Under the pieces are notes generated by a model. That model had not been told where the DNA came from and did not search any database. It was given only the letters and a program-made list of their open reading frames with translations. A stretch of DNA of 64,000 bases from Candidatus Poriferihabitaceae bacterium (GTDB lineage Bacteria > Pseudomonadota > Gammaproteobacteria > Arenicellales > Poriferihabitantaceae), in contig CBDFMY010000003.1 in the NCBI GenBank assembly GCA_965249835.1, forward strand, positions 1,249,979-1,313,978, given 5' to 3'. A program made the translations under genes and the position numbers. Positions 7,682 through 43,790 of the stretch are shown piece after piece; the first letter of the stretch is position 1; each line of letters begins with the position of its first letter.

Positions 7682-8557
7682 ATGAACCAGATGCTTGAAC
7701 ATAACAAAATCGTTAAAGGCGATACATTTCATTTGCTACCAAAAATCGAAGAGGAAAGCATTGATTTAATTGTTTGTGACGGACCATACAGTGTCACGAC
7801 GAACGAATGGGACAGAGTCGGTTCGATTCAAGAATACAACTTGAATTTATTAAAAATATTTTCCACCAAACTAAAAGATGGCGGTGCTTTATATCTATTT
7901 GGAAAAAATGATTGTATTGATTTTATCGATTATCGATCTTATTTGAATCTTAAATCCAAAATTGTCTGGTATCAGCCCAGTCGGCTTTCCCATGGGCGGG
8001 TCAGTTTCACCAATAATTACGATATAATTTGTTACTTCGTCAAAGGCGATAAACCAAAAACTTTCAATTTGGATTCAATAAGAGTCCCGCAGTTGGTTGA
8101 ACTGCAACATCGCTTAAGATGCGAAAATGTGCCTTCCGTTCGAACCGGAAAATATGGCAGAACAAAATTTAATGACAAAGGAAAAAACCCGGGTGATGTG
8201 TGGGGAGATATAAAGCAATTGACTTATAAATCAAAAGAATTAGTCAGCAGGGAAGCACTCAACACAATTCAAAAGCCAGAAAAACTTTTTGAAAGAATTA
8301 TATTGGCCAGTTCAAATAAAGATGATCTTGTTTTAGATCCTTTTTGCGGAGTTGGAACAACAGCGGTTATGTGTAAAAAGCACAAAAGAAATTTTATTTG
8401 TTTCGAGAAAAATCACCAACTCGTAGAATGGGGGAATGAAAGAATAATGCGGTTGGGAAAAATTGAAATGGCACAACAAAGTGATTTATCCCAACCCATA
8501 ATCGAGCCCCCAATGTCACCAGTGGCAACGCGGCCTTCCCCGCCACACACCGCCTAA
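7682..8557 (+). CDS. Beta-class DNA methyltransferase (N6-adenine or N4-cytosine), orphan
   Basis: Motif IV variant IVCDGPYS near the N-terminus and motif I DPFCGVGTTAV near the C-terminus (beta-class order); TIQKPEKL. AT-rich. AAGGA lies 5 nt upstream of the ATG. Confidence 0.85.
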   Translation: MNQMLEHNKIVKGDTFHLLPKIEEESIDLIVCDGPYSVTTNEWDRVGSIQEYNLNLLKIFSTKLKDGGALYLFGKNDCIDFIDYRSYLNLKSKIVWYQPSRLSHGRVSFTNNYDIICYFVKGDKPKTFNLDSIRVPQLVELQHRLRCENVPSVRTGKYGRTKFNDKGKNPGDVWGDIKQLTYKSKELVSREALNTIQKPEKLFERIILASSNKDDLVLDPFCGVGTTAVMCKKHKRNFICFEKNHQLVEWGNERIMRLGKIEMAQQSDLSQPIIEPPMSPVATRPSPPHTA

Positions 8558-30928: not shown

Positions 30929-31909
30929 TTGCGCACAAATGACATAACAGAAATGAACACCTCCTCCGAAAATAAAAAAGACGACATTGTTCTCGGCGTC
31001 GGCATCATCATTGCGACCGTGTTCACCATGGCGTTCTCCGATGCCATCATCAAATATATCAGCGCGGACTTCCCCCTGTGGCAAATCTTTGTGGTGCGCT
31101 CGCTCGTGGCGATACCCGTTTTAATCGCCATCGTATTGTTCGCATCGCAAATATCCGACATCCGCCCGCGCTCGCTGAAATGGACGATCACGCGCAGCAT
31201 GTTGCTGGTGTTTATGTACATAGCCATCTACGCGGCAGTGCCATTGCTGCCTTTATCGGTCATAGCGGCGTCGCTTTATACCGGACCGATTTTCGTTGCC
31301 TTGTTTTCGGCCTTTCTCATCGGCGAGCCGGTCGGGACACGAAGATGGATCGCGGTTGTTCTTGGATTCATGGGGGTTGTTGTTATTCTCCGCCCGGACA
31401 CGGAGGCTTTTTCATTCTATATGTTGATACCGGTTATCGCCGGCTTGTTTTATGCGCTGGCGGCGATTATCACCAGAGCGAAATGCATCGATGAAAATCC
31501 GAAAATACTTGCCATCATGCTCAACTTATCGATTTTGATTATCGGATTGCTGGCGAGCGGCGTTGTTGTCTTGGCTCAGCCGCTACTCCGACACGGCATA
31601 ACCTATCCGTTCCTTCTCGGCAACTGGATTGCCATGCGGCCGCGCGAATGGGGCGTGATCGCGCTCTTGTCCTTCCTCATCGTCATCATCGGCATCGGCT
31701 TGGCGAAAGCGTATCAATCTGCGCCGCCGCCTATCATCGCCACTTTCGATTACACCTATCTGCTGTTCGCCGCCTGGTGGGGATTTTTGTTTTTCTCCGA
31801 AATCCCGAACCTGGAAACGATCATTGGAATGGTGATAATTGTTATCGCTGGCTTTCTTGTGATTGGTTCTGGTGTCAATAAAGGCGGACAACAAAGACGC
31901 GTCGGTTGA
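30929..31909 (+). CDS. DMT-superfamily (EamA-like) transporter
   Basis: About 10 TM helices in two EamA-like halves. Alternative start at 30953 (MNTSSENKK). Confidence 0.7.
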   Translation: MRTNDITEMNTSSENKKDDIVLGVGIIIATVFTMAFSDAIIKYISADFPLWQIFVVRSLVAIPVLIAIVLFASQISDIRPRSLKWTITRSMLLVFMYIAIYAAVPLLPLSVIAASLYTGPIFVALFSAFLIGEPVGTRRWIAVVLGFMGVVVILRPDTEAFSFYMLIPVIAGLFYALAAIITRAKCIDENPKILAIMLNLSILIIGLLASGVVVLAQPLLRHGITYPFLLGNWIAMRPREWGVIALLSFLIVIIGIGLAKAYQSAPPPIIATFDYTYLLFAAWWGFLFFSEIPNLETIIGMVIIVIAGFLVIGSGVNKGGQQRRVG

Positions 31910-31920
31910 CTCGCTGGCAC

Positions 31921-32094
31921 TGATAGTTACCGCATCGGCCTGAACTGGAAATTCGGTTCGGCGATCGCTCTGGATGTGGTCGACCAGATCAATAACCGGC
32001 CGCGCAAATGCCTTGGCATGAAAACACCGAATCAGGCACTATTCGGCATAAATCCCCCTGTTGCACTTCGAGGTTGAATCCAAGGACTTATACA
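31921..32094 (+). mobile_element. IS30-family right-end remnant (transposase C-terminal about 35 codons plus terminus)
   Basis: Reads ...DVVDQINNRPRKCLGMKTPNQALFGINPPVALRG*, an IS30 C-terminal signature. The terminal ggttgaatccaaggacttataca is shared with 45801-45884. Confidence 0.65.
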
Positions 32095-32185
32095 CGCACT
32101 GGAATCGGCGGCGTGCTCGCCGTATAATCGCCATCATGACCCGCCATCCCCTTCCGGCAACCGCACGGTTGCAACGCCACGGGCA

Positions 32186-33508
32186 ATGGACATGACCGTC
32201 GCCAGCCACGAGACCATCCTCGTCATTGGCGGCGGCATCAGTGGCATGACCACGGCGCTGGAAGCGGCCGAATGTGGCAAGCAGGTAATCTTGATTGAAA
32301 AAAATCCGGCACTCGGTGGGCGCGTATCGCAACTGCATCGCTACTTCCCCAAACTTTGTCGCCCGACTTGCGGGCAAGAAATTAATCTGCGGCGCATCAA
32401 GGCGAATAAATTTCTGCGCGTTTTGACCATGGCCGAAATCACCAGCCTTAGCGGCGAGGCCGGCAACTACACCGCGCACATTAAAATTCATCCGCGTTAT
32501 GTGAATGAAAACTGCACCGCTTGCGGCGCATGCGCACGCGCCGTGAGTGCGCAAATTGACGACCCGCATAATTACGGCATGGGGAAAATCAGTGCCGCGT
32601 ATTTGCCCAACAACATGGCGTATCCGCAACGTTATGTTCTCGACCGGTCCATTGTCGGCACCGAACAGGGCGAAGCCGCAAAAGCCGCGTGTCCGGTGGA
32701 TGCGATTGATTTGGAGATGCAAGAGAAGGAAATAGAAATCACTTGCGGCGCGGTGGTTTTTGCCACCGGCTGGCGACCATATGATGCGGCGCGCATTGAA
32801 CCATATGGATACGCACGCTATGCCGATGTCATCACCAGCGTTGAGTTCGAGCGCATGATGGATCCATTTGGCCCGACCGCGGGAAAATTAACCCGACCGT
32901 CCAACGGTGAGGACGCGAAAGACATCGCATTCATTCAATGCGCCGGTTCGCGTGACCGCAATCATCTCGCGCATTGTTCGCGCATCTGTTGCATGGCATC
33001 GCTGAAACAAGCCACTTACCTTGCAGAGCAATACGGCGATGACCAAGACGCGCGTGCGACCATCTATTATATTGATATCCGAACCATCGATCGCTTTGAA
33101 GATTTTGAACGACAAGTGCGCGCCGATGCGCGCGTGCATTTTATTAAATCCAAAGTCGCCAGCATCGAGCAGGACGCGGACGGCAAACCGCTGCTGATCG
33201 GCGTTGACACCCACGGCTATCACCGCTACCAAAACGCGCACGACCTGGTTGTGCTGGCGATCGGTATGACCCCCAGTGTTGACATCGCTGCGTTGCTGAA
33301 AACCAATCACGAGGTCGCGGTGGATGCCGGCGGATTTATCGAACTTGAGCAGATCAATGGCGCAGAGAATGACGACACGCATGGCGTGTTCGCGGCCGGC
33401 TGCGCGTCCAATCCGCTGGATGTAAATCGCTCGGTGCAAAGTGCCACCGCGGCGGCGTTGCGCGCCATTCAGGTAGTCAATCGCGTGTCCCGCGCGCAAA
33501 AAACATGA
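32186..33508 (+). CDS. qmoA: QmoA (HdrA-like FAD-dependent oxidoreductase of the Qmo complex)
   Basis: ILVIGGGISGMTTALEAAECGKQVILIEKNPALGGR dinucleotide motif; HdrA-like body; directly followed (ATGA overlap) by qmoB. Confidence 0.8.
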   Translation: MDMTVASHETILVIGGGISGMTTALEAAECGKQVILIEKNPALGGRVSQLHRYFPKLCRPTCGQEINLRRIKANKFLRVLTMAEITSLSGEAGNYTAHIKIHPRYVNENCTACGACARAVSAQIDDPHNYGMGKISAAYLPNNMAYPQRYVLDRSIVGTEQGEAAKAACPVDAIDLEMQEKEIEITCGAVVFATGWRPYDAARIEPYGYARYADVITSVEFERMMDPFGPTAGKLTRPSNGEDAKDIAFIQCAGSRDRNHLAHCSRICCMASLKQATYLAEQYGDDQDARATIYYIDIRTIDRFEDFERQVRADARVHFIKSKVASIEQDADGKPLLIGVDTHGYHRYQNAHDLVVLAIGMTPSVDIAALLKTNHEVAVDAGGFIELEQINGAENDDTHGVFAAGCASNPLDVNRSVQSATAAALRAIQVVNRVSRAQKT

Positions 33509-35811
33509 ACGACTCAACGATAAAACTCGGCGCGTATTTGTGCAAAGGCTGCGGCTTGGGCGAGCGTCTTGATACGGATAAATTGGCCACGGTCGCCGAA
33601 CAAAGCGGCGCGACCACGGTCAAGACGCATGATTATTTGTGCAGTGCCGACGGCGTCGCCACTATCCGCGATGACATCGAAAACCAACAAGTCACCCATG
33701 TCGTCATCGGTGCTTGCTCGCGCCGCGCCAAAACCGAAGCGTTTGGTTTTGACGAAGCATCACACGAATCACATGGCGCGGCGGTGGCGCGGGCGAATTT
33801 GCGCGAAGGCGTGATTTGGACGCAACCGGATACGCCGGATGCGCGCGAGACCACCCAGGAGATGGCGGATGATTATGTGCGCATGGCATGCACCGAAGCG
33901 AAGTTCATGCAGTTGCCGAAAGCCGATGCCGAGAGCGCTGCCAACAAGCGCATTCTGGTGGTCGGCGGCGGCGTCAGCGGCATGACCGCGGCATGGCAAT
34001 CGGCGCGCGCCGGCTATGCGGTTTTGCTGGTGGAAAAAAGCCCCGCGCTCGGCGGCTGGGCGCGTTCGTTGCATCGTTGTCTGCCGCGCACCGAGCCACA
34101 TGCGCAACCGGTGCACAATGACATCGCGCAACTCATCAAGGCGGTGGAAGATCACGCTAGTATCACGGTGTTTTTGAATGCCACCGTAGCCAAAACCAGC
34201 GGTGCACCGGGGCGTTTTTCGGTGGACATTGCGAGTGGCCGCACCACCGTTACCGAGAACATCGGCGGCATCGTGCAAGCCAGTGGTTTCAGTCGGTACG
34301 ATGCCAACCGCCTGCCGGAATTTTCCTACGGCAAAACTCCGGATGTGATCGACCAAACCGAGTTGGAGGCACTGGCGGTCAAAGCCGGCGACAATGGCGG
34401 CAATGGTGGCAATGGCGGAGTGATAACGCGCCCCTCCAACGGCAAACCGGTTAACAGCGTGGTGTTCGTGCAGTGCGCCGGCCAACGCTCGCAAAAGCCC
34501 GGACATCTGCCATATTGCTCCGGTTATTGTTGCAACGTAAGCATCAAGCAGGCGATGTATTTCAAGGAGCAAAACCCCGACATTGATACCAATGTGATTT
34601 ATTCCGACCTGCGCACGCCCGGCAACGGCGAGGATTTTTATCGTGCGGCGCAACAGCAAGGCGTGGTGTTCACCAACGGCGAGGTGGCCTCGGTTGTGCC
34701 TGATGCCGAACAGTTGGCGGTGCATTTTCGCGATCATATCTTGCACCAAGACGCGGTCGCGCACGCCGATCTGGTGGTGCTGGCAACCGGGCAAGTGCCG
34801 AATTCGGGGGTGGATATCGAGGCCGACAATGACGCCGGGGATGCCGAGGGCAAGAGTGCCGAGGGTAGCGCCGAAAATAAAAAACCCGGCGAGGTCAGGG
34901 TTTCGGTGGAGTCCATTCTCAATCTCGATTACCGTCAGGGTCCCGACCTGCCGCATTTGAAACACGGCTTCAGCGATTCGCATTTCATCTGTTTCCCATA
35001 TGAGACGCGCCGCACCGGCATTTACGCGTGCGGTCCGGTGCGCCGCCCGATGGACATTCAGCAATCCATTGAAGATGCCACCGGCGCAGCGATGAAGGCG
35101 ATTCAATCGGTCGAAGCCGCCAACTTCGGGCGTGCCGCGCATCCGCGTGTCGGCGATTTGTCCTATCCGAGTTTCCGCAAGGACGGCTGCACCCAGTGTA
35201 AGCGTTGCACCGTGGAATGTCCGTTCGGCGCCATCGACGAAGATGAAAACGGCTATCCGCAGTTCAACGAATCGCGCTGCCGGCGTTGCGGCACTTGCAT
35301 GGGCGCGTGTCCGGTGCGCGTGATTTCGTTTGAAAATTATTCGGTGGACACCGTCGGCCAGCAAATCAAAGCCATTGAAATGCCCGATGAATTCGACGAG
35401 AAGCCGCGCATCCTGATTCTCGCTTGTGAAAACGATGCCTATCCGGCGCTGGATATGGCGGCGCACAACCGCATCCAATACAACGCCTTCGTGCGCGTGA
35501 TTCCGATTCGCTGCCTGGGTTCGGTGAATTTGATCTGGGTGACCGATGCGATTAACTCCGGCTTTGACGGCATCATGATGATGGGCTGCAAAAAGGGTGA
35601 TGACTATCAATGTCACTTCGTGCGCGGTTCCGAGTTGGCGCACGAGCGCATGAGCAAGATTGACGACACCTTAACGCAATTGCAACTGGAAACCGAGCGC
35701 GTGCAAACGTTTGAAGTGGAAATCACTGACATTGAACGCGTGCCGAAACTGATTAACGACTACGCCGAAAAAATAGACGCGCTCGGCATGAATCCGTTCA
35801 AAGGGTTTTGA
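33505..35811 (+). CDS. qmoB: QmoB (HdrA-like flavoprotein with 2x[4Fe-4S] and C-terminal MvhD-like domain)
   Basis: ILVVGGGVSGMTAAWQSA; ferredoxin motifs CTQCKRCTVECP and CRRCGTCMGACP; C-terminal ILACENDAYP...IPIRCLGSVN (MvhD/FlpD-like). Confidence 0.85.
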   Translation: MNDSTIKLGAYLCKGCGLGERLDTDKLATVAEQSGATTVKTHDYLCSADGVATIRDDIENQQVTHVVIGACSRRAKTEAFGFDEASHESHGAAVARANLREGVIWTQPDTPDARETTQEMADDYVRMACTEAKFMQLPKADAESAANKRILVVGGGVSGMTAAWQSARAGYAVLLVEKSPALGGWARSLHRCLPRTEPHAQPVHNDIAQLIKAVEDHASITVFLNATVAKTSGAPGRFSVDIASGRTTVTENIGGIVQASGFSRYDANRLPEFSYGKTPDVIDQTELEALAVKAGDNGGNGGNGGVITRPSNGKPVNSVVFVQCAGQRSQKPGHLPYCSGYCCNVSIKQAMYFKEQNPDIDTNVIYSDLRTPGNGEDFYRAAQQQGVVFTNGEVASVVPDAEQLAVHFRDHILHQDAVAHADLVVLATGQVPNSGVDIEADNDAGDAEGKSAEGSAENKKPGEVRVSVESILNLDYRQGPDLPHLKHGFSDSHFICFPYETRRTGIYACGPVRRPMDIQQSIEDATGAAMKAIQSVEAANFGRAAHPRVGDLSYPSFRKDGCTQCKRCTVECPFGAIDEDENGYPQFNESRCRRCGTCMGACPVRVISFENYSVDTVGQQIKAIEMPDEFDEKPRILILACENDAYPALDMAAHNRIQYNAFVRVIPIRCLGSVNLIWVTDAINSGFDGIMMMGCKKGDDYQCHFVRGSELAHERMSKIDDTLTQLQLETERVQTFEVEITDIERVPKLINDYAEKIDALGMNPFKGF
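35481..35811 (+). repeat. 331-bp direct repeat, copy 1 (native 3' end of qmoB)
   Basis: Matches 37536-37866 at 329 of 331 positions (differences at 35553 and 35559, both synonymous). Confidence 0.95.
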
Positions 35812-35905
35812 TAGTACTCTGAAGATTTCGGCACGGAATCAGTTTGCAATCCCATGAAAGAAACTATAGTGTTCATAACTAGGTGATTTCAACCAACCCA
35901 ATTTT

Positions 35906-36808
35906 ATGTATCAGCGACCGGCATCCACTCTTTCCACATTTGCCGAAGCAAATGTCAGGCAAGCCGATATTTTTCAGGCTGACGGGACGGACGTTTGCAG
36001 TGAGAAATTTGTGGGTTGCAGTATTGACCAGTATTATACCAAACCTGAAATAGTTTCGATCTGTTTGCGCGAATTGGGCAGGTTGTCCGAGTTTGATTGC
36101 GTGATTGAACCTAGTGCCGGCGATGGTGCATTTTTTTCCAAGATTAAGCATAGCAACTTAATAGGATTGGATATTACTCCGCATCATCCAGCGATTAAAA
36201 AAGCAAACTGGCTGACTTACAAAATAGACAGCGCATACAAAAAAGTGGTGGTGGTGGGTAACCCGCCATTTGGCAGATTTAATAATTTGTCCGCGGCATT
36301 TATCCAACATGCATTAAAATTCCCCGCAGTTTCGTGCATCGGTTTTATTTTGCCCGATGTGTATAACAAACATACCCGACAAGCGATACTGCCAAGCCAT
36401 TGGCGCATTAAAACGAACCATAAATTGCCGCGCAATGCGTTTTTGTATGAAGGAGAAACCCAACATGTGCCATGTTCGTTTTTTGTGTTTTGTCGGTCAC
36501 AGGGCAAGGATTTGCGTGTACCGACCAAATTGCCGAACATTGCGGATTTTAGCTTTTCCAATTGCAAAGATTACGATGTGTTTATTTTTGGTGCTGCACC
36601 AAAAAATATATTACGGCAGGGGGAAGTTAAGAAAAATAATCGCGGGCATTTTCTGAAATCACATATTGATGTTAATCGGTTAATTGCCAACTTAAACGCG
36701 GTGGTTTGGCAAGGCAACTCATGTGCAAGCGGCGGTGTGTATTGGCTGACCAAAAATGAATTGGCGATGCAGTATTATCACAGACACACGATTGGGCCAA
36801 AACCATGA
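35906..36808 (+). CDS. Gamma-class N6-adenine DNA methyltransferase (compact, 300 aa)
   Basis: Order QYYTKPEIV (motif X), VIEPSAGDGAFF (motif I), VVVGNPPFG (motif IV NPPF). AT-rich. Confidence 0.8.
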   Translation: MYQRPASTLSTFAEANVRQADIFQADGTDVCSEKFVGCSIDQYYTKPEIVSICLRELGRLSEFDCVIEPSAGDGAFFSKIKHSNLIGLDITPHHPAIKKANWLTYKIDSAYKKVVVVGNPPFGRFNNLSAAFIQHALKFPAVSCIGFILPDVYNKHTRQAILPSHWRIKTNHKLPRNAFLYEGETQHVPCSFFVFCRSQGKDLRVPTKLPNIADFSFSNCKDYDVFIFGAAPKNILRQGEVKKNNRGHFLKSHIDVNRLIANLNAVVWQGNSCASGGVYWLTKNELAMQYYHRHTIGPKP

Positions 36809-37395
36809 AATTAACAAGACAAGACAAAAGAGACATGAGGTCATTGGCAACGACTGTTTATGAAAGCCAAGCAAAGTCCAGTGTTTTGGTGATGCGAGTC
36901 AAAGATAAATTAATAGCGGCCGAACTTACCGGAGTAGTAACCGCGGTGGAATTTTATCGAATCACTGCATTGATGAGCACTCAAATGCGCGCGCCGTTAT
37001 GGGAAAAATATTTTATTGAAAAACATGGATTTAATCGGGTTCAACCCGCTGAAAACCAAGGTGATATGGAAAAAAACGGAAATTACTACGAATATAAGGC
37101 ATCTGGATTTAACGCCAAAAATGAATTGAGACTCCTCCAAATTCGGCATTGGCAAAATTGCGATTACATATTCCAATTTATATCCGGCGAAGGGGCAGAC
37201 ACATTTTGCCTTACCAAAAAACAAATGAAAGTCGAAATGAAAATCAATAAAGCTCACCCGGCACATGGCACAAAGACAGTCAATTTAAATAATAAAATGG
37301 TGGAATACATGATGACTGTGAAGAGAGAAAGAATGAATGATGTTTGGATGAAAAAGTATTTTGTTGCAGACCCGTTACAGATAGGCGTTGTCTGA
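36805..37395 (+). CDS. Hypothetical protein, candidate PD-(D/E)xK restriction endonuclease partner
   Basis: The start overlaps the MTase stop (ATGA). GDMEKNGNYYEYKAS gives D-x9-E-x-K spacing. 196 aa, AT-rich. No recognisable family otherwise. Confidence 0.45.
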   Translation: MKLTRQDKRDMRSLATTVYESQAKSSVLVMRVKDKLIAAELTGVVTAVEFYRITALMSTQMRAPLWEKYFIEKHGFNRVQPAENQGDMEKNGNYYEYKASGFNAKNELRLLQIRHWQNCDYIFQFISGEGADTFCLTKKQMKVEMKINKAHPAHGTKTVNLNNKMVEYMMTVKRERMNDVWMKKYFVADPLQIGVV

Positions 37396-37512
37396 TATTA
37401 AATTACAAAGACGATTTTTCATTACAAAAATAACTGCTCCAACCATGTCCGGTATCCGCCCACAAGTCGGTATAATTGACGGAATTCGGAAAATCTCCAA
37501 TCAATCGCCCCA

Positions 37513-37866
37513 ATGAATCCAATCGAAAAATATCGCAACGCCTTCGTGCGCGTGATTCCGATTCGCTGCCTGGGTTCGGTGAATTTGATCTGGGTGACCG
37601 ATGCGATCAACTCTGGCTTTGACGGCATCATGATGATGGGCTGCAAAAAGGGTGATGACTATCAATGTCACTTCGTGCGCGGTTCCGAGTTGGCGCACGA
37701 GCGCATGAGCAAGATTGACGACACCTTAACGCAATTGCAACTGGAAACCGAGCGCGTGCAAACGTTTGAAGTGGAAATCACTGACATTGAACGCGTGCCG
37801 AAACTGATTAACGACTACGCCGAAAAAATAGACGCGCTCGGCATGAATCCGTTCAAAGGGTTTTGA
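37513..37866 (+). pseudogene. Chimeric fragment: hdrC-like start (MNPIEKYRN) fused to a duplicate of the last 110 codons of qmoB
   Basis: From 37536 on it is identical (2 synonymous changes) to the qmoB 3' end. 37513-37539 (ATGAATCCAATCGAAAAATATCGCAAC) resembles the hdrC start ATGAACTCC...GAAAAATACCGCAAC at 39220. Confidence 0.8.
37536..37866 (+). repeat. 331-bp direct repeat, copy 2
   Basis: See copy 1; offset is exactly 2055 bp. Confidence 0.95.
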
Positions 37867-38018
37867 GCGTGATTATATTTGGCATGTTGTTTTTAATTGT
37901 GGTGATATTCGCATCTATATCTGCTATCTTTGTATGCCACCACCTTCTTGGTCGCATTCTGGCCGTTTAGTATATTGCTCTCATTATTAGAAATCGCTGT
38001 CAATCAAGTGTTTGAACA

Positions 38019-39218
38019 ATGAATCTGCAAATTCCCAACCGCGCATTATTCACCGGCGACAACCTGCCGATTTTGCGCGGCATAAACTGCGACAGCGTTG
38101 ATTTGATTTACCTCGACCCACCGTTCAACTCCAACAAAGAATACTCGGCAGTGGAAGGAAGCGAAGCGGCCGGCGCGTCTTTCAAGGATGCGTGGACGCT
38201 TTCGGATGAAGATGAATCGTGGCACGCCGCGTTGAAATCGCATCATCCGAAGTTATACGCGATCATTCATGTGGCCGGTGCGGTTGGTGACTCCGGCGAC
38301 AAATCGTATTTGATTTACATGGCGGTTCGCATTTTGGAATTGCGCCGCATTATGAAAAACACCAGTAGCATTTATTTGCATATCGACCCGACCATGAGTC
38401 ACAGTCTGAAGTTGGTGATGGATGCGATTTTTGGCAATGGCGGATTTGTTAATGAGATTATCTGGTATTACAAAAACGCATCGCGTGGCAAAAAACGTTT
38501 TGCCAAAAGCCACGATGTGATTTTATGGTATGCAAAGGGCGCGCCGCAGTTTAACCGTGATGATGTGCTGACACCGTTTGCAAGCGGCATGACCAAATGG
38601 CGTTATACGCATGGCGGTCAGCGCGGCAATCCCATTCCAAAAGGAAAAACGCCGGATGATGTGTTTGAGATTCCCGCGTTGAATGCCATGGCAAAGGAGC
38701 GCATGGGTTACCCGACGCAAAAACCGCTGGCGTTGCTGAATCGCATCATCAAGGCGAGCAGCAACGAGGGCGACACCGTGCTCGATCCGTTTTGCGGTTG
38801 CGCCACCACTTGCGTTGCGGCGGAAGTGTTACACCGCAAATGGATTGGTATTGATATCAGCCCGAAGGCGTTGGAGTTGGTGAAGACGCGGCTCGGCCGG
38901 GAAGTGCTCGGTGAGGGCAAAGTGTTCAAGGGCGAAGTCGTTCATCGCACCGACATCCCGCATCGTATCGATATTCCGCGCATCACACTGTCGGACACCG
39001 AAATTCGCAAAAGGTTATATGGCAACCAGGCCGGGCTATGCAATGGTTGCGGATTTCATTTTCCCATTCAGAACTTTGAGCGCGATCACATTGTCCCGCC
39101 CTGCCAAGGCGGTGCCGATATAATGGAAAACTTTCAATTGCTGTGCGGTAACTGCAATCGCGTCAAAGGCAATCGCACCATGGAATATTTGAAAGCGCGC
39201 CTTCTCGAGAAACAATAA
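38019..39218 (+). CDS. Beta-class DNA methyltransferase fused to a C-terminal HNH endonuclease domain
   Basis: IYLDPPFNSN (motif IV) then DPFCGCATTCVAAE (motif I) and PTQKP. The C-terminal 70 aa read CNGCG...FERDHIVPPCQGG...NFQLLCGNCNRVKGN (HNH with a Cys4 zinc pattern). Confidence 0.85.
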   Translation: MNLQIPNRALFTGDNLPILRGINCDSVDLIYLDPPFNSNKEYSAVEGSEAAGASFKDAWTLSDEDESWHAALKSHHPKLYAIIHVAGAVGDSGDKSYLIYMAVRILELRRIMKNTSSIYLHIDPTMSHSLKLVMDAIFGNGGFVNEIIWYYKNASRGKKRFAKSHDVILWYAKGAPQFNRDDVLTPFASGMTKWRYTHGGQRGNPIPKGKTPDDVFEIPALNAMAKERMGYPTQKPLALLNRIIKASSNEGDTVLDPFCGCATTCVAAEVLHRKWIGIDISPKALELVKTRLGREVLGEGKVFKGEVVHRTDIPHRIDIPRITLSDTEIRKRLYGNQAGLCNGCGFHFPIQNFERDHIVPPCQGGADIMENFQLLCGNCNRVKGNRTMEYLKARLLEKQ

Positions 39219-39219
39219 A

Positions 39220-39852
39220 ATGAACTCCGCCAACACATCCGCCGTGGAAAAATACCGCAACCAGTTCCTGCGCGAGGTCGAAGCCAATGTCGAGGACGGC
39301 GAGTGGGTGAAGATGTGCATGCAGTGCGGGGTGTGTTCCGGCTCGTGTCCGCTGGGGAGTGCGTGGGCGCATCCGCCGCAGGAATTGTTTATGATGATTC
39401 GCGCCGGGCAACGCGACGAAGTGCTCAGATCGGAGTCCATGTGGATGTGCACTTCCTGTTACAACTGCGTCACGCGTTGCCCGCGCGGGCTGCCGATTAC
39501 GCACATCATGCACGGCTTGGCGAACTACGCCAACCGCCTCGGGATCGCGCCGAAGATGAATCCGACCAAACGTTTTGCGAAAATATTTTGGGACAACATC
39601 GCCGACACCGGACGCGTGAATGAATCGAAACTGTCGATAAAACTGTATTTTATGAACGGTTTGATGAGCGGCATAAAAACCGCGTTCGGCATGCGCAAGG
39701 TCGGTTTGGGTATGCTTCGAACCGGACGACTGAATCCGCTTGGGTTTTTCCGCGCCGGCGGTATCAAAGAAAAAAATCAGTTACGACAGATGTTGAAAAA
39801 GGCGCATGAAATTGAAGACAAACGCAGAGGGCTGAAACAGCCCGGAGGATAA
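39220..39852 (+). CDS. hdrC: Heterodisulfide reductase subunit C-like iron-sulfur protein
   Basis: CMQCGVCSGSCP and CTSCYNCVTRCP 4Fe-4S motifs. The ATG lies 1 nt after the preceding stop. Confidence 0.85.
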   Translation: MNSANTSAVEKYRNQFLREVEANVEDGEWVKMCMQCGVCSGSCPLGSAWAHPPQELFMMIRAGQRDEVLRSESMWMCTSCYNCVTRCPRGLPITHIMHGLANYANRLGIAPKMNPTKRFAKIFWDNIADTGRVNESKLSIKLYFMNGLMSGIKTAFGMRKVGLGMLRTGRLNPLGFFRAGGIKEKNQLRQMLKKAHEIEDKRRGLKQPGG

Positions 39853-39856
39853 CGCA

Positions 39857-40771
39857 ATGGCACGAAAAGAATATTCCTTTTATCCGGGCTGCTCATCTGA
39901 GCGCAAGTCCTCGGCATCCAACTACATGGTATCGGTCAATACCATGTGCAAGACGCTGGATATTAAACTAAACGAGATTCCCGACTGGAATTGCTGCGGC
40001 GCGTCCATCGGTTATGCCGACGGCGGCGAGTTGCCGCGTCATGTGATGAACGCACGCAACGTGGCGTTGTCGCAACAACATAACAAAGGGCAGGACATCG
40101 TCGCCACTTGCGCGGCCTGCTGGCTTGGCGCGAAAGAATCGGTGGAGCGGTTGTCTAAGTCCGAGCAATTGCTCGCCGACACGCAAAGTATTCTTGCCGA
40201 TGTCGGGTTGAAAGTGGACATCGATGAAAAAACCGCGAGCAGCGTGCGTCACATGGTCGAAGTATTGATCGAGGATTTTGGCTACGATGAACTCGCGGCA
40301 CCGGTCAAAAAACCGTTGGAAGGATTAAAGATCGCCGGTTATGTCGGTTGCCAGACCAACCGCCCGTTCGGCATAGACGGCGAGTCTTTTGAAAATCCAA
40401 AATATCTGGACAAGATGGTGGAAATTATGGGTGCTGAGCCGGCCGAAAAATACGAACAAAAGGTCACCTGCTGCGGCGGCGCGCTGGCGTTTTCGGAGCC
40501 GGAAAAAAGCCAGGCGCAAATCAAGGACATTGTTGAATCAGCCTACGACCACAATGCCGACATGATCGTCACGCCGTGTCCGGTGTGTCAGATGAATGTT
40601 GAAGTGTATCAGGAGCAAATCAACAAAACCTACGGCAAAAATTTCAACATGCCGGTGGTGTATTATAGCCAGTTGATGTCGGTCGCCTATGGTAGCACCG
40701 CCAAACAAGCGGGCCTGGACGGGCAGGTGATACGCACGAAGAAACTGGAGGAGATTGCGGCAAAAAAGTGA
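39857..40771 (+). CDS. hdrB: Heterodisulfide reductase subunit B-like (CCG-domain) protein
   Basis: FYPGCS...NCCG and GCQTNRP...TCCGG...PCPVCQ (two CCG domains). GGAGG lies 7 nt upstream of the ATG. Confidence 0.85.
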   Translation: MARKEYSFYPGCSSERKSSASNYMVSVNTMCKTLDIKLNEIPDWNCCGASIGYADGGELPRHVMNARNVALSQQHNKGQDIVATCAACWLGAKESVERLSKSEQLLADTQSILADVGLKVDIDEKTASSVRHMVEVLIEDFGYDELAAPVKKPLEGLKIAGYVGCQTNRPFGIDGESFENPKYLDKMVEIMGAEPAEKYEQKVTCCGGALAFSEPEKSQAQIKDIVESAYDHNADMIVTPCPVCQMNVEVYQEQINKTYGKNFNMPVVYYSQLMSVAYGSTAKQAGLDGQVIRTKKLEEIAAKK

Positions 40772-40993
40772 GTGGTCGGCGTGTGGCGACTTGACAAAAG
40801 TAATCCAATGGATTGCGAGGCGCGGCGAATCGTGGGAAGATGCGAGTGATGAAAACGGCAATCCAGTTGGTCGCGCCAGTTGGTCTTGATTTAGGGATTA
40901 CTGTGGGCAACTCGGTGTGATTTTTGTCGGGCATCTGTGCTAATGAATTGGCCAAACTAACGAATCTGCTCGTTAAAAACCACGGAGAAAGCG

Positions 40994-41189
40994 ATGTCTG
41001 AATCTTTCGACAGCATCAAGCGGGGTTTCACCGAAGCGGTTCGGTATTCCGCAGGCAAACGCGTGCAAGCGATTGTCCATGAGTCTGCACCGATTGATGT
41101 GAAAAACACTCGCGCTACTCTTAAAATAAGTCAAGTTGAATGTGGTGGCAAAAAAGCCAAAGGCGGTGCTGGATGCGCTTGCGCGGTGA
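40994..41189 (+). pseudogene. Internally deleted/frameshifted XRE-type antitoxin-like gene
   Basis: The N-terminal MSESFDSIKRGFTEAVRYSAGKRVQAIVHESAPIDVKNTRATLKISQVE matches the common leader of HTH antitoxins. The HTH core is missing. A C-terminal-like LNVVAKKPKAVLDALAR* is readable in the +1 frame ending at 41189. Confidence 0.5.
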
Positions 41190-41226
41190 GCCGGTGCAAA
41201 TCAAAACTCGCAAGAGAGACGTTTTT

Positions 41227-41367
41227 ATGAGTGGAAAAGTAATGAGTGCTTGGGATAGAGTGGAAATCACAACAGACATATACCTTGGCGATAGCAAAGA
41301 TCAACTGAAATCGCTTCCAAGCGATTCTGTCGATCTCATCATTACATCGTCCCTTAGGCAAGAGTAA
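41227..41367 (+). pseudogene. N-terminal stub of a DNA methyltransferase, truncated at motif IV
   Basis: IYLGDSKDQLKSLPSDSVDLIITS is followed by SLRQE* where (S/D)PPY is expected. Confidence 0.6.
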
Positions 41368-41392
41368 AGCGAATAGCGACCATTATTTTAGG

Positions 41393-42359
41393 ATGAACAT
41401 ACAAAATAAAAAGCCCGGAGTGAAAATGAGTTATGAAGGCAGGATGCTTGAGGATTACAATATGCCGGATCGTGATGAGGTTGCGAAGGTCTTGCTAATA
41501 ATGCTTTTTAGACATGGTGGCACAGTCAGAGAGTTTTCAATCGACGAAGCAGTAGTCACGGAAGTCGCTGACAATTTCGGCCTTACCAAAAATCAAAAAG
41601 ATGTTGTTCTTGAGAGAATTTACAAAAAAGAAAACAGAACTGTGCGAACACCTTTGTGGCACAGATTATTGTATAGGGCGGGCGATATATTAGCGAAAGA
41701 AAAATTGGTTACGCGCCCAACAAAAACTTTGAGGCTCACAAATAAAAGAGAATGAATGTTAACCGAGAAAGGATATGACAAGGCCTTGGATCTTCTAAAC
41801 ATTCCATCCGACTACAAATCTGAATTACCAATCAAGCCATATGAAGTCCAAAAAATAGTCGAAAGCATTTCTGCACAATTAAAACCAGAGAGTTATAATC
41901 CTTTCAATAAAAGAAAAAAAAACAAAAATCACAACGAAAAAATCTATTATGAGAAACAGAGGATTCAGACAAGCAATAATTAATGTTTATGATTACAAAT
42001 GTTGTGTTTGCGGGTTGAAGTTGCGTTCACCCGATAAATTACGATGGGAAGTGCAAGCCGCGCACATAGTTCCTCATAGATATTTTGGAAGAGACGATAT
42101 ATGGAATGGGTTGGCATTATGCCAATTGCATCATTGGGCTTTTGATGTAGGACTATTTAGTTGTGATGGGAATTTTAAAGTAGTGTCTTTAATGGAATCA
42201 CAATCCTTAGGAAGTGATTACGGTATGATATTTGGTTATGATTTTTTGGATCATTTAAAGTCTGGCAGATGTTTCTTGAAGTTGCCAAAAGCAGCAAAGC
42301 ATTATCCGGATATGGCTGCTATAAATTGGCACAGAACTAACATTTATAATGGCAGGTAA
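41393..42359 (+). pseudogene. Disrupted HNH (HNH_2-type) restriction-endonuclease-like gene in three pieces
   Basis: Three abutting ORFs: 41393-41755, 41756-41983, 41949-42359. The first ends ...LRLTNKRE* and is followed directly by MLTEKG. There is a frameshift between YYEKQRIQTSNN* and MRNRGFRQAII. The last piece carries CCVCG...AAHIVPH...NGLALCQLHHWAFDVG. Confidence 0.55.
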
Positions 42360-42568
42360 TGGCCATCGGTATGGAAAATCACTTAATCAACCAACTAATC
42401 TACCAGTTAGATGAAGACGATGCGCAACAAGTTGCTATGGGAAGTCTCGGAAGATATCTTATTAAGAATGAATTGACCGCATTAAAAGATAAAATTTGCG
42501 AAAAGATAGATTGGCATGAAGCGATTGATTCTGCTATATCCGATATAACATCGTCCGAAGCGTCCTGA
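42359..42568 (+). CDS. Hypothetical acidic protein (69 aa)
   Basis: The ATG overlaps the preceding TAA (TAATG). AT-rich. No family recognised. Confidence 0.3.
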   Translation: MAIGMENHLINQLIYQLDEDDAQQVAMGSLGRYLIKNELTALKDKICEKIDWHEAIDSAISDITSSEAS

Positions 42569-42632
42569 AACGCGTGGAGCTTCGCTTCATCCAAAGTAAA
42601 TTAATATTCCTGAAATTCACCGAACCGAGCAG

Positions 42633-43790
42633 ATGAAAACCACCGAAACCACCCGCATTCTCACCGACCTCATTGCGCTGGATACCACCAGTCGTAATTC
42701 GAATCTGGTGTTGATCGAATACGCGCAGTCGTTGCTCGCCGACCATGGCGTTCAATCTGAATTGACTTTTGATGCCGAGAAAAACAAAGCCAATCTGTTC
42801 GCCACCCTCGGGCAGAGCGAGCAGCCCGGCATCGTGCTTTCCGGACATACCGATGTGGTGCCGGTGGACGGGCAGGATTGGCGCACCGACCCGTTTGCGG
42901 CGGAAGTGGTCGGCGACAAGTTATACGGTCGCGGCAGTTGCGACATGAAAGGATTCATCGCCATTTGTCTCGGGCATATCGACCGCATTCTCAAAGCCAA
43001 ACTAGACACACCGGTGCATTTTGCTTTTTCCTACGACGAGGAGGTGGGTTGCATCGGCGTCAATGGATTGCTCGCCGAACTCGCCAAACGCGAAGTGCAA
43101 CCTCGCGCCTGCATCATCGGCGAGCCGACCAGCATGGGCGTGGTGCGCGCGCACAAGGGAATGTTGTCCAAACACTGCCGGGTGCGCGGCAAGTCATCGC
43201 ATTCATCCTTGACCCACCACGGCGTCAATGCGGTCGCCATGGCGGCCAAAACCATCGCTTTCATCGACGCCATTGCCGAGCGCATCGCCCGCGAGGGGCC
43301 CTTTGATGCGGGCTTTGAGCCGCCCCACACGACCCTGCACACCGGCGTGATTCACGGCGGCACGGTCAACAACATCATTCCCAATAGATGCGAGTTTGAG
43401 TTTGAAATTCGCAACCTGCCGCAACATCCGCCGTTGCCGTTGTTTGAAGAAGTGGAGCGTTATGTCGAGGAAACCCTGATTCCGAAAATGCATGCGGTCA
43501 GTGCCGAGACCGGTTTTGACTGGGAGACCTCGTCGAATTATCCGGGCATGAACACCGATGCCGGCCATGCGGTGGTCGACATGGCATCCAAATTGCTGGG
43601 GGATGTCGGCGACCCCGGCAAGGTCAGTTACGGCACCGAAGGCGGGCTGTTCCAGAAGGCCGGCATTCCCACGGTAATTTGCGGTCCCGGCTCCATCGAA
43701 CAAGCACATAAGCCCGATGAGTATGTTGAACTCGCGCAACTTTCCAAAGGCGAGCAATTCATTTCTGATTTGATCGACTCATTGCGGTGA
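42633..43790 (+). CDS. argE: Acetylornithine deacetylase (M20 family)
   Basis: LSGHTDVVP, GRGSCDMKG, YDEEVGC, GTEGG motifs; ArgE-like length. Confidence 0.8.
   Translation: MKTTETTRILTDLIALDTTSRNSNLVLIEYAQSLLADHGVQSELTFDAEKNKANLFATLGQSEQPGIVLSGHTDVVPVDGQDWRTDPFAAEVVGDKLYGRGSCDMKGFIAICLGHIDRILKAKLDTPVHFAFSYDEEVGCIGVNGLLAELAKREVQPRACIIGEPTSMGVVRAHKGMLSKHCRVRGKSSHSSLTHHGVNAVAMAAKTIAFIDAIAERIAREGPFDAGFEPPHTTLHTGVIHGGTVNNIIPNRCEFEFEIRNLPQHPPLPLFEEVERYVEETLIPKMHAVSAETGFDWETSSNYPGMNTDAGHAVVDMASKLLGDVGDPGKVSYGTEGGLFQKAGIPTVICGPGSIEQAHKPDEYVELAQLSKGEQFISDLIDSLR

Follow-up and report, generated by a model that had tools for sequence, protein, structure and literature searches.

A methylase-HNH fusion gene inside the qmo-hdr operon of sponge symbionts: a candidate one-chain restriction-modification enzyme with an ordinary operon junction

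What does a gene that joins a DNA methylase to an HNH nuclease do in the middle of an energy operon, and does it hold the next gene of that operon hostage? Both questions are raised by a 64,000-nucleotide (nt) stretch of contig CBDFMY010000003.1 from a Candidatus Poriferihabitaceae bacterium (hereafter the window, meaning that whole stretch), in which an open reading frame (ORF) for such a fusion stands between qmoB and hdrC of a qmoAB-hdrCB operon, with its stop codon a single nucleotide before the hdrC start. On balance, we lean towards the reading that the gene encodes a beta-class methylase and a Cas9/IscB-type HNH domain, belongs to a large family and has long resided between qmoB and hdrC, that its product would act as a one-chain restriction-modification (RM) enzyme with a single recognition domain, and that its junction with hdrC is an ordinary one. 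What is new here, as far as the sequences can tell, is an apparently unstudied family, a build unlike that of the known one-chain enzymes, and a set of orthologous alleles with exchanged cassettes; the fusion itself is common.

A DNA methylase and an HNH nuclease in one chain

The fusion gene and the parts of its product are located as follows (aa, amino acids; AdoMet, S-adenosylmethionine).

38019-39218, + strand: methylase-HNH fusion gene, an intact 399-aa ORF with ATG start and TAA stop
38115-38126, + strand: motif IV, DPPF (aa 33-36), the methylase catalytic loop, invariant in 60 homologues
38436-38702, + strand: variable target-recognition segment (~aa 140-228), between motif IV and PTQKP/motif I
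38784-38810, + strand: motif I, DPFCGCATT (aa 256-264), the AdoMet-binding loop, with D256, P257, F258, G260, A262 and T263 invariant
39039-39170, + strand: HNH nuclease core, aa 341-384, with C341xxC344, D356-H357, N371, C376xxC379-N380 and K383, all invariant in 60 homologues

This ORF is a real gene, a chance ORF being excluded; the end coordinate of 39222 previously given for it takes in the hdrC ATG as well. Pfam recognizes both halves above cut-off, that is, PF01555 (N6_N4_Mtase) at residues 27-289 (1e-47, 163.4 bits vs. a cut-off of 26.7) and PF01844 (HNH) at residues 341-386 (1.1e-10, 41.9 bits vs. 21.4), with HNH_5 above its cut-off too (38.7 vs. 27.5 bits). The motifs follow each other in the order of beta-class methylases (motif IV, recognition segment, PTQKP at aa 232-236, motif I), and the HNH half carries CNGC (aa 341-344), DHIVP (aa 356-360) and CGNCN (aa 376-380). 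Hence, the architecture that the initial annotation had read from the letters, a complete beta-class methylase and an HNH domain in one polypeptide, is borne out, with every motif it quoted in place. Across 60 diverse members of the family, DPPF, PTQKP, DPF-G-AT, C341, C344, D356, H357, G364-G365, N371, C376, C379, N380 and K383 are invariant, and the motif residues are invariant or at least 95% conserved in the alignments of 60 and 120 homologues.

The AlphaFold model of the protein is of good quality by its own measures (predicted local distance difference test, pLDDT, 85.6; predicted template-modelling score, pTM, 0.86). Foldseek matches its methylase half to M.BceJIV, M.RsrI, M.MboIIA and CcrM (E 1e-18 to 1e-16), with target template-modelling (TM) scores of 0.73-0.82 for the first three and 0.52-0.56 for CcrM, and sequence matches to beta-class methylases in the PDB have E values of 3e-21 to 2e-14. 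The HNH half aligns position by position with the HNH domain of a Cas9 (8d2k), including the catalytic D-H...N...CxxCN, and also with IscB, McrA, a group II intron maturase and an HNH endonuclease of Geobacter (4h9d). An HNH domain short of catalytic residues, which the initial annotation had named as a point that would count against its proposal, is therefore not what the alignment shows: these residues are intact, invariant in the 60 homologues and match those of Cas9. Foldseek found no solved structure spanning both halves (best query TM-score 0.52), and no named NCBIfam family fits the protein, the only matches, all sub-threshold, being to YhdJ/CcrM-type methylases and the HNH of Cas9d/IscB. 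The methylase is probably of the N6-adenine type; we take DPPF rather than SPPY to point to adenine as the target.

The fusion is not the unusual one-off as which it first appeared. All 120 best homologues carry both PF01555 and PF01844 at a length of 375-458 aa, and these 120 are the best matches of a longer list, so that the family size is a lower bound. They are named "DNA methyltransferase" or "HNH endonuclease" in the source records and come from Gammaproteobacteria, Treponematales, Rickettsiales, Planctomycetaceae, Ignavibacteria and one sponge alphaproteobacterium. The C-terminal 110 residues (linker plus HNH) alone retrieved 592 clusters (50% identity) at E<=1e-10, and PF01555 was present in 9 of 10 members sampled from these clusters, many of which are truncated metagenomic fragments. 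At 12 of the 13 places examined there was no conserved partner gene, the neighbours being housekeeping genes that differ from place to place. Two paralogous members (L086 and L087) occupy unrelated housekeeping sites on one 1.98-Mb contig, each 1-2 nt from the neighbouring gene on one side. The equal length of the longest contig (4.74 Mb) suggests that P0061 and P0064 might likewise be paralogues in one genome. No full-length relative was found in 50,697 phage records and essentially none in plasmid records, where only the methylase part finds matches; a recent phage or plasmid origin was considered and is unsupported. We found no paper on this architecture, the reviews covering HNH restriction and fused enzymes only (REBASE not covered), and the family, a very large one, is apparently so far uncharacterized.

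Another solitary beta-class methylase is encoded at 7682-8557 of the window (291 aa, CDGPY ... DPFCGVGTT); it has no HNH domain, is 32% identical to part of the methylase-HNH protein and lies between dipeptidase-like and cytidylyltransferase-like genes.

Residence between qmoB and hdrC

The operon around the fusion gene consists of the following features.

32186-33508, + strand: qmoA, first gene of the qmoAB-hdrCB operon (FAD/NAD-binding Pfam matches)
33505-35811, + strand: qmoB, 768 aa, full length, with an MvhD/FlpD-like C-terminal domain (PF02662 FlpD 1.3e-38, plus Fer4 and FAD domains)
37867-38018, + strand: AT-rich spacer of 152 nt, from repeat copy 2 (see the last section) to the start of the methylase-HNH gene, with one 9/12 promoter-like match at 37852-37879
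39216-39222, + strand: TAA-a-ATG junction of the methylase-HNH stop and the hdrC start, as read from the sequence
39220-39852, + strand: hdrC-like iron-sulfur subunit (Fer4_8 4e-12; partial matches to HdrC and QmoC N-terminal models)
39857-40771, + strand: hdrB-like CCG-domain subunit (Pfam, NCBIfam), with a strong Shine-Dalgarno (SD) motif, GGAGGA

A scan with HdrC over one genome per species gave 80 related loci with 63-87% hdrC identity, the closest of which (75-87%) belong to sponge-associated Arenicellales, Ca. Poriferihabitaceae and Ca. Spongiihabitans, with genomes assembled from metagenomes; qmoA is 61-82% identical to the gene before qmoB in nearly all of the full-length loci. The order qmoA-qmoB-hdrC-hdrB is found in 73 of the 80, with at most ~120 nt and mostly 2-16 nt between qmoB and hdrC, so that the methylase-HNH gene is indeed, as proposed, inserted at a junction that most relatives have without it. 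Of the remaining seven loci, three have the methylase-HNH gene and four have inserts of another kind. In all, the gene stands at this junction in seven genomes, that is, in the window and in six other genomes of sponge symbionts (L001, L004, L012, L081, L085 and L089), which answers in the affirmative whether the fusion occurs next to qmo and hdr genes elsewhere. The spacing around it differs from genome to genome.

Window: qmoB stop to gene 2207 nt; gene stop to hdrC 1 nt
L001: qmoB stop to gene 1 nt; gene stop to hdrC 5 nt
L085: qmoB stop to gene 1 nt; gene stop to hdrC 5 nt
L089: qmoB stop to gene 4 nt; gene stop to hdrC 41 nt
L012: qmoB stop to gene 15 nt; gene stop to hdrC 55 nt
L004: qmoB stop to gene 422 nt; gene stop to hdrC 121 nt
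L081: qmoB stop to gene 347 nt; gene stop to hdrC 150 nt

Identity of the other copies to that of the window is distributed unevenly along the gene and its neighbours.

N-terminal third of the gene: 80-83%
C-terminal part of the gene: 73-87%
Residues 144-227 of the gene: 33-52% over partial lengths, or unalignable
qmoB: 72-77%
hdrC: 81-86%
hdrB: 91-94%

The framework of the gene (methylase plus nuclease) in the six other same-site copies is 75-85% identical to that of the window, vs. 80-83% for qmoB, hdrC and hdrB together, and in a pairwise comparison of the seven copies (21 pairs) the identity of the framework is correlated with that of the host genes (r = 0.80). Its guanine-plus-cytosine (GC) content of 0.47-0.57 is near that of hdrCB and slightly below that of qmoAB, unlike that of its low-GC neighbours. 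Since the framework diverged in step with the flanks, the gene is an old one at this place, that is, a long-standing resident of the junction in sulfur-oxidizing sponge symbionts (Arenicellales; Ca. Poriferihabitaceae/Spongiihabitans). In a rough neighbour-joining tree of the hosts (a distance method on three proteins, qmoB, hdrC and hdrB), filled and empty sites are interspersed, with the filled L004 basal in the sponge clade and the empty L002 sister to the filled L012. Such scattered empty sites mean that the gene was lost or exchanged repeatedly, and the pattern suggests an old insertion followed by several losses. The empty sites have a clean qmoB-hdrC junction of 2-4 nt, and the gene is thus not locked in place. 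The hdrB gene of one filled locus calls for a remark: at L089:4594-5535, where hdrB is expected, a 313-aa ORF was called on the minus strand, but tblastn finds hdrB there at 93% identity, and the minus-strand ORF is probably a gene-calling quirk.

Does hdrC then depend on the gene before it? The initial annotation had argued that the stop-start spacing leaves no room for a ribosome-binding site of hdrC, that hdrC is therefore translated only by ribosomes that restart after the methylase-HNH stop, and that loss of the cassette would be costly, a form of positional addiction. The spacing itself is as described: in the junction sequence gagaaacaaTAAaATGaactcc the stop occupies 39216-39218, base 39219 is an "a", and the hdrC ATG at 39220 is the first start codon after an in-frame stop at 39190-39192. 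However, ribosome-binding sites normally lie inside the upstream ORF, and the argument from lack of room is invalid for that reason; furthermore, of 14 starts examined in the window only that of hdrB (-9.5 kcal/mol) has a strong SD motif, and the other 13, hdrC included (best duplex -3.0 kcal/mol), have none. The RNA around the hdrC start (39150-39290) is predicted to fold less stably than all but one of 200 shuffled sequences (z = +2.2), that is, the start would be open rather than sequestered. An in-frame GTG at 39244-39246, 24 nt into hdrC, immediately precedes the conserved EKYRN motif and might serve as an alternative start. Several relatives seem to start hdrC at the equivalent position (MVEKYRN).

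The relatives bear on this question too, by comparison of their junctions. None of the seven filled loci has an SD-like motif before hdrC, and with spacers of 41, 55, 121 and 150 nt in L089, L012, L004 and L081, hdrC must initiate there without coupling. In distant sulfur oxidizers the qmoB stop is embedded in a TAGGAG SD motif, whereas members of the sponge clade without an insert have a qmoB-hdrC gap of 2-4 nt and no SD motif (empty junctions ttttaatcATG in L005, ttttgagcATG in L009 and ttttagtgATG in L010). Tight spacing is therefore the native condition, an SD-less tight junction before hdrC is ancestral in the sponge clade, and a clean deletion of the gene would restore a junction just as tight. 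The persistence of the gene at one site in seven diverged genomes speaks for the addiction model, as does the 1-nt distance to an SD-less hdrC, and some coupling is likely at such a junction on general grounds. Nevertheless, with the relatives' long spacers, the interspersed empty sites (L002 beside L012), the open start, the general scarcity of SD motifs and the alternative GTG all against it, we consider this model very improbable. That is, the 1-nt spacing is ordinary operon packing; it is no proof of a dependence of hdrC on the gene, it does not keep the gene where it is, and the sequences do not indicate that hdrC needs translation of the upstream gene. TAAaATG is a typical junction of translationally coupled operon genes, as at the other tight junctions of the window (ATGA overlaps at qmoA/qmoB, where start and stop overlap by 4 nt, and at M1/R1; a 4-nt gap at hdrC/hdrB), and it has no feature that sets it apart from these; relatives tolerate 41-150 nt at the same place. 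In short, the model of a foreign gene that holds an essential one through a 1-nt junction fails.

The further proposal that the gene is expressed with the qmo operon is plausible, and transcription with qmoAB-hdrCB is most likely; a single nucleotide separates the gene from the qmoB stop in L001 and L085. An own promoter in the 37867-38018 spacer is possible. A promoter and terminator scan over 31800-42700 gave counts at chance level (15 vs. 12.7 expected and 22 vs. 16.2) and is uninformative on an own promoter or on read-through.

A swappable recognition segment and what the enzyme might do

The part of the gene that departs from the common history is the recognition segment. That of the window (~aa 140-228) is only 27-42% identical to those of the other six same-site copies. 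The clearest case comes from L001 and L085, whose host proteins are 99.5% identical and whose DNA is 98-100% identical through qmoB, the gene (L001:4718-5992 and L085:4001-5236) and hdrC, outside nt ~420-790 of the gene. There, identity drops to 20-47%, and the edges of this stretch are sharp; the swap leaves the HNH part as it was. Between L001 and L012 the segment shows 83% identity, compared with only 80% for the host genes; the L085 type recurs in L004 and L081, at 81-82% identity, and the window and L089 carry further types. With at least three to four different recognition cassettes among seven orthologous copies, the segment is exchanged as a cassette by recombination within a conserved framework.

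This pattern is informative about how the two halves might work together. The protein has one variable segment only, its HNH half has no extra domain, and the segment was swapped between strains that are 98-100% identical with HNH constant. If the nuclease had a fixed specificity of its own, it could not be maintained through a swap of the methylase segment, whereas one that borrows this segment could, and an enzyme with shared recognition is therefore favoured. In Type IIG enzymes, a change in the specificity module alters restriction and modification together ("functional synchrony"; PMC4081073), and their recognition domains have been reported to vary among alleles (PMC2853133). By the same token, the central variable segment of the methylase would pick the DNA site, the methylase would mark the cell's own DNA at that site, and the HNH domain, having no recognition domain of its own, would nick or cut DNA that is bound by the same protein but unmethylated. 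Cutting both strands would probably need a dimer, and one recognition module for both activities would allow a cassette swap without killing the cell. We infer methylation, cleavage, shared specificity and a role in defence from the genes.

Compared with known systems, the protein shares with Type IIC/IIG enzymes (MmeI, BpuSI, BtgZI) the union of nuclease and methylase in one chain with no need for a partner gene and a single variable recognition segment exchanged between alleles (PMC4081073, PMC4752239, PMC2853133), and with BtgZI the N-terminal methylase and C-terminal nuclease. It differs in that its nuclease is an HNH (beta-beta-alpha-metal) rather than a PD-(D/E)XK domain, in that its methylase is of the beta class with a central rather than of the gamma class with a C-terminal recognition segment, and in its length of only ~400 aa; cleavage and AdoMet dependence would be predictions for it. 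The usual Type IIC/IIG build (N-terminal PD-(D/E)XK plus gamma-class NPPY/F/W methylase) is not the build of this protein, and we favour, by analogy, an enzyme that would work like Type IIG while falling outside the usual architectural definition, and not a member of the MmeI-type family. Beta-class methylases such as M.RsrI, M.BceJIV, M.MboIIA, CcrM and Type III Mod have the same fold and motif order (DPPF, recognition segment, PTQKP, FxGxG), but none of them has a nuclease domain. HNH domains of the Cas9, IscB, group II intron and phage type (8d2k, 4h9d, 6me0) have the same CxxC...DH...N...CxxCN...K constellation, but these are guided by RNA or other protein domains, whereas the HNH here is fused to a DNA methylase. 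The build of the family thus differs from that of every one-chain RM enzyme in the reviews covered.

Several points weigh against the one-chain RM reading. No paper on the family was found, and methylation and cleavage are predictions for every member. An HNH domain of this type cuts one strand, and a dimer for a double-strand cut is assumed from the dimeric beta-class methylases. An HNH domain that is inactive, non-specific but tightly controlled, or aimed at other than unmethylated sites would be compatible with the cassette swap as well. Not all members stand alone, in that one from a metagenomic, phage-like region (L090) adjoins a second PF01555 methylase. With respect to the history of the locus, recombinational exchange of filled and empty alleles is an alternative to repeated loss, the tree being compatible with either. 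Finally, the known one-chain enzymes have an N-terminal PD-(D/E)XK domain and a gamma-class methylase, with BtgZI combining an alpha-class methylase and a C-terminal PD-(D/Q)XK (PMC4081073).

Alternatively, the protein might be a solitary epigenetic methylase with a non-restricting HNH domain, be it a structural or DNA-binding appendage, a repair-type nickase on hemimethylated DNA or a nuclease on differently modified DNA. The gene does stand alone, CcrM (solitary and with a C-terminal DNA-binding extension) is a top structural match, the window encodes a second solitary beta-class methylase, and a cassette swap would be harmless if the nuclease did not restrict. However, the invariance of all catalytic and zinc-binding HNH residues in 60 diverse homologues argues for selection on catalysis rather than on binding, and rapid cassette exchange between near-identical strains is typical of defence specificity and not of regulatory methylases (PMC4081073), so we regard this alternative as unlikely. 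A selfish, homing-type element, whose HNH would cut empty or unprotected alleles while the methylase shields the carrier and repair copies the ORF into tight junctions, would persist by spread. Such an element would explain a stand-alone ORF lodged between housekeeping genes with gaps of 1 nt (L086, L087) or of 1 and 5 nt (L001, L085), the two paralogues on one contig (and the possible second pair), and the patchy presence within the clade, and HNH nucleases include homing enzymes. Yet the co-divergence of the framework with its flanks and the matching GC content indicate vertical descent rather than recent invasion, no recognizable target site was identified at the empty junctions, no full-length relative turned up in the phage records, and homing by the nuclease would not call for an exchangeable recognition segment in the methylase; hence, spread by homing seems to us quite unlikely.

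We thus return to the one-chain RM enzyme as the reading that we favour. More tentatively, and short of what we would call favoured, the family may represent a widespread class of minimal (~400 aa) one-chain RM enzymes, in which a beta-class methylase and a Cas9-like HNH share one exchangeable recognition segment, with a long-term resident in the energy operon of sponge symbionts whose cassette variation would be a strain-level barrier to phage and DNA exchange. If the protein does cut and methylate through one segment, it would be a compact, naturally re-targetable nuclease-methylase and a source of new specificities. The seven orthologous copies, including the clean swap between near-identical strains, represent a natural experiment by which segments could be linked to methylation motifs.

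The M1-R1 module and other inserts at the operon

The 2207 nt between qmoB and the fusion gene in the window include a further methylase and its partner, here called M1 and R1, with a direct repeat on either side.

35481-35811, + strand: copy 1 of the direct repeat, comprising the 3'-terminal 331 nt of qmoB up to its TGA, identical to 37536-37866 save 2 mismatches
35906-36808, + strand: M1, a gamma-type (VVGNPPFG) Type II DNA methylase (PADLOC MTase_II 1.2e-31)
36805-37395, + strand: R1, the 196-aa partner of M1 and a candidate restriction endonuclease, by conserved pairing with M1
37513-37866, + strand: chimeric ORF, an in-frame fusion of a 27-nt hdrC-like head (MNPIEKYRN) and repeat copy 2 (37536-37866)

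R1 has no Pfam, NCBIfam or PADLOC match. Only 16 homologues of it were found, and in the three loci examined (L091-L093) they directly follow and overlap an M1 homologue, which is 54-56% identical to M1. The GC content of the module is 0.36-0.43, compared with 0.55-0.62 in qmoAB. The two copies of the 331-bp repeat agree at 329 positions, relatives have a single copy, and the insert of ~1.7 kb contains no transposase or integrase. Directly before copy 2 stands the 27-nt head ATGAATCCAATCGAAAAATATCGCAAC, which resembles the start of hdrC genes (e.g., MTEAIEKYRN in L081), and the FlpD match in the chimeric ORF is confined to positions 27-123 of the profile.

Insertion with long target duplication has been described for RM genes, with repeats of 46 to >400 bp (Furuta, Abe & Kobayashi 2010; PMC2853133), and is recognized there by RM genes within <20 kb, the absence of mobility genes, and a direct repeat of >30 bp that is single-copy at empty sites. 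The M1-R1 module fits this description, a low-GC module flanked by a 331-bp target repeat, with a nuclease role for R1 that would follow from its pairing. It differs from the described cases in that its right junction also has 27 nt of a foreign hdrC allele, and the description concerns M1-R1, not the methylase-HNH gene. The donor DNA probably came from a relative with the module already at the qmoB-hdrC junction, and the hdrC head would have been joined to the repeat at a short shared CAAC(G) sequence. The module was inserted recently, and it represents one clear case of insertion with long target duplication at this locus. A simple tandem duplication was considered as the origin of the repeat and rejected, since the two copies are followed by wholly different DNA and the hdrC head in front of copy 2 does not match the 5' end of the actual hdrC. 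An assembly artefact is unlikely as well, although collapsed strain variants might come to mind for a repeat of this kind, because a foreign hdrC head fused to mid-qmoB is not expected from them. A short remnant of this type (ggtatgaatccggctaaaagtttttga) is also present in L081, where it separates the inserted DUF2442 gene from the methylase-HNH gene.

The junctions of the qmo-hdr operon in sponge symbionts look like recurrent insertion sites, and conserved operon junctions in these bacteria can thus be long-lived landing sites for defence genes. Other inserts were observed in several relatives, namely a two-gene insert of 1.6 kb between qmoA and qmoB (L002:1947-3610 and L012:681-2289), with a weak REase-ARP match for one of the genes; an unassigned 244-aa ORF (L013:2254-3195) and a HAD hydrolase with a small ORF (L014:4808-6007), both between qmoB and hdrC; and, in two of the filled loci, a 102-aa ORF (L004:4194-4617) and the DUF2442 gene already mentioned (L081:4653-5001). 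Downstream of the operon, the window has a low-GC (0.34-0.41) island at 40772-42632, between hdrB and argE; in L014, and probably in L002, argE lies <1 kb after hdrB. The island encodes a 136-aa HNH_2 protein (41949-42359) that resembles the C-terminal part of phosphorothioate-dependent restriction enzymes and, besides several small unassigned ORFs, the decayed N-terminus of a beta-class methylase (41233-41367; ...DSVDLIITSS...).

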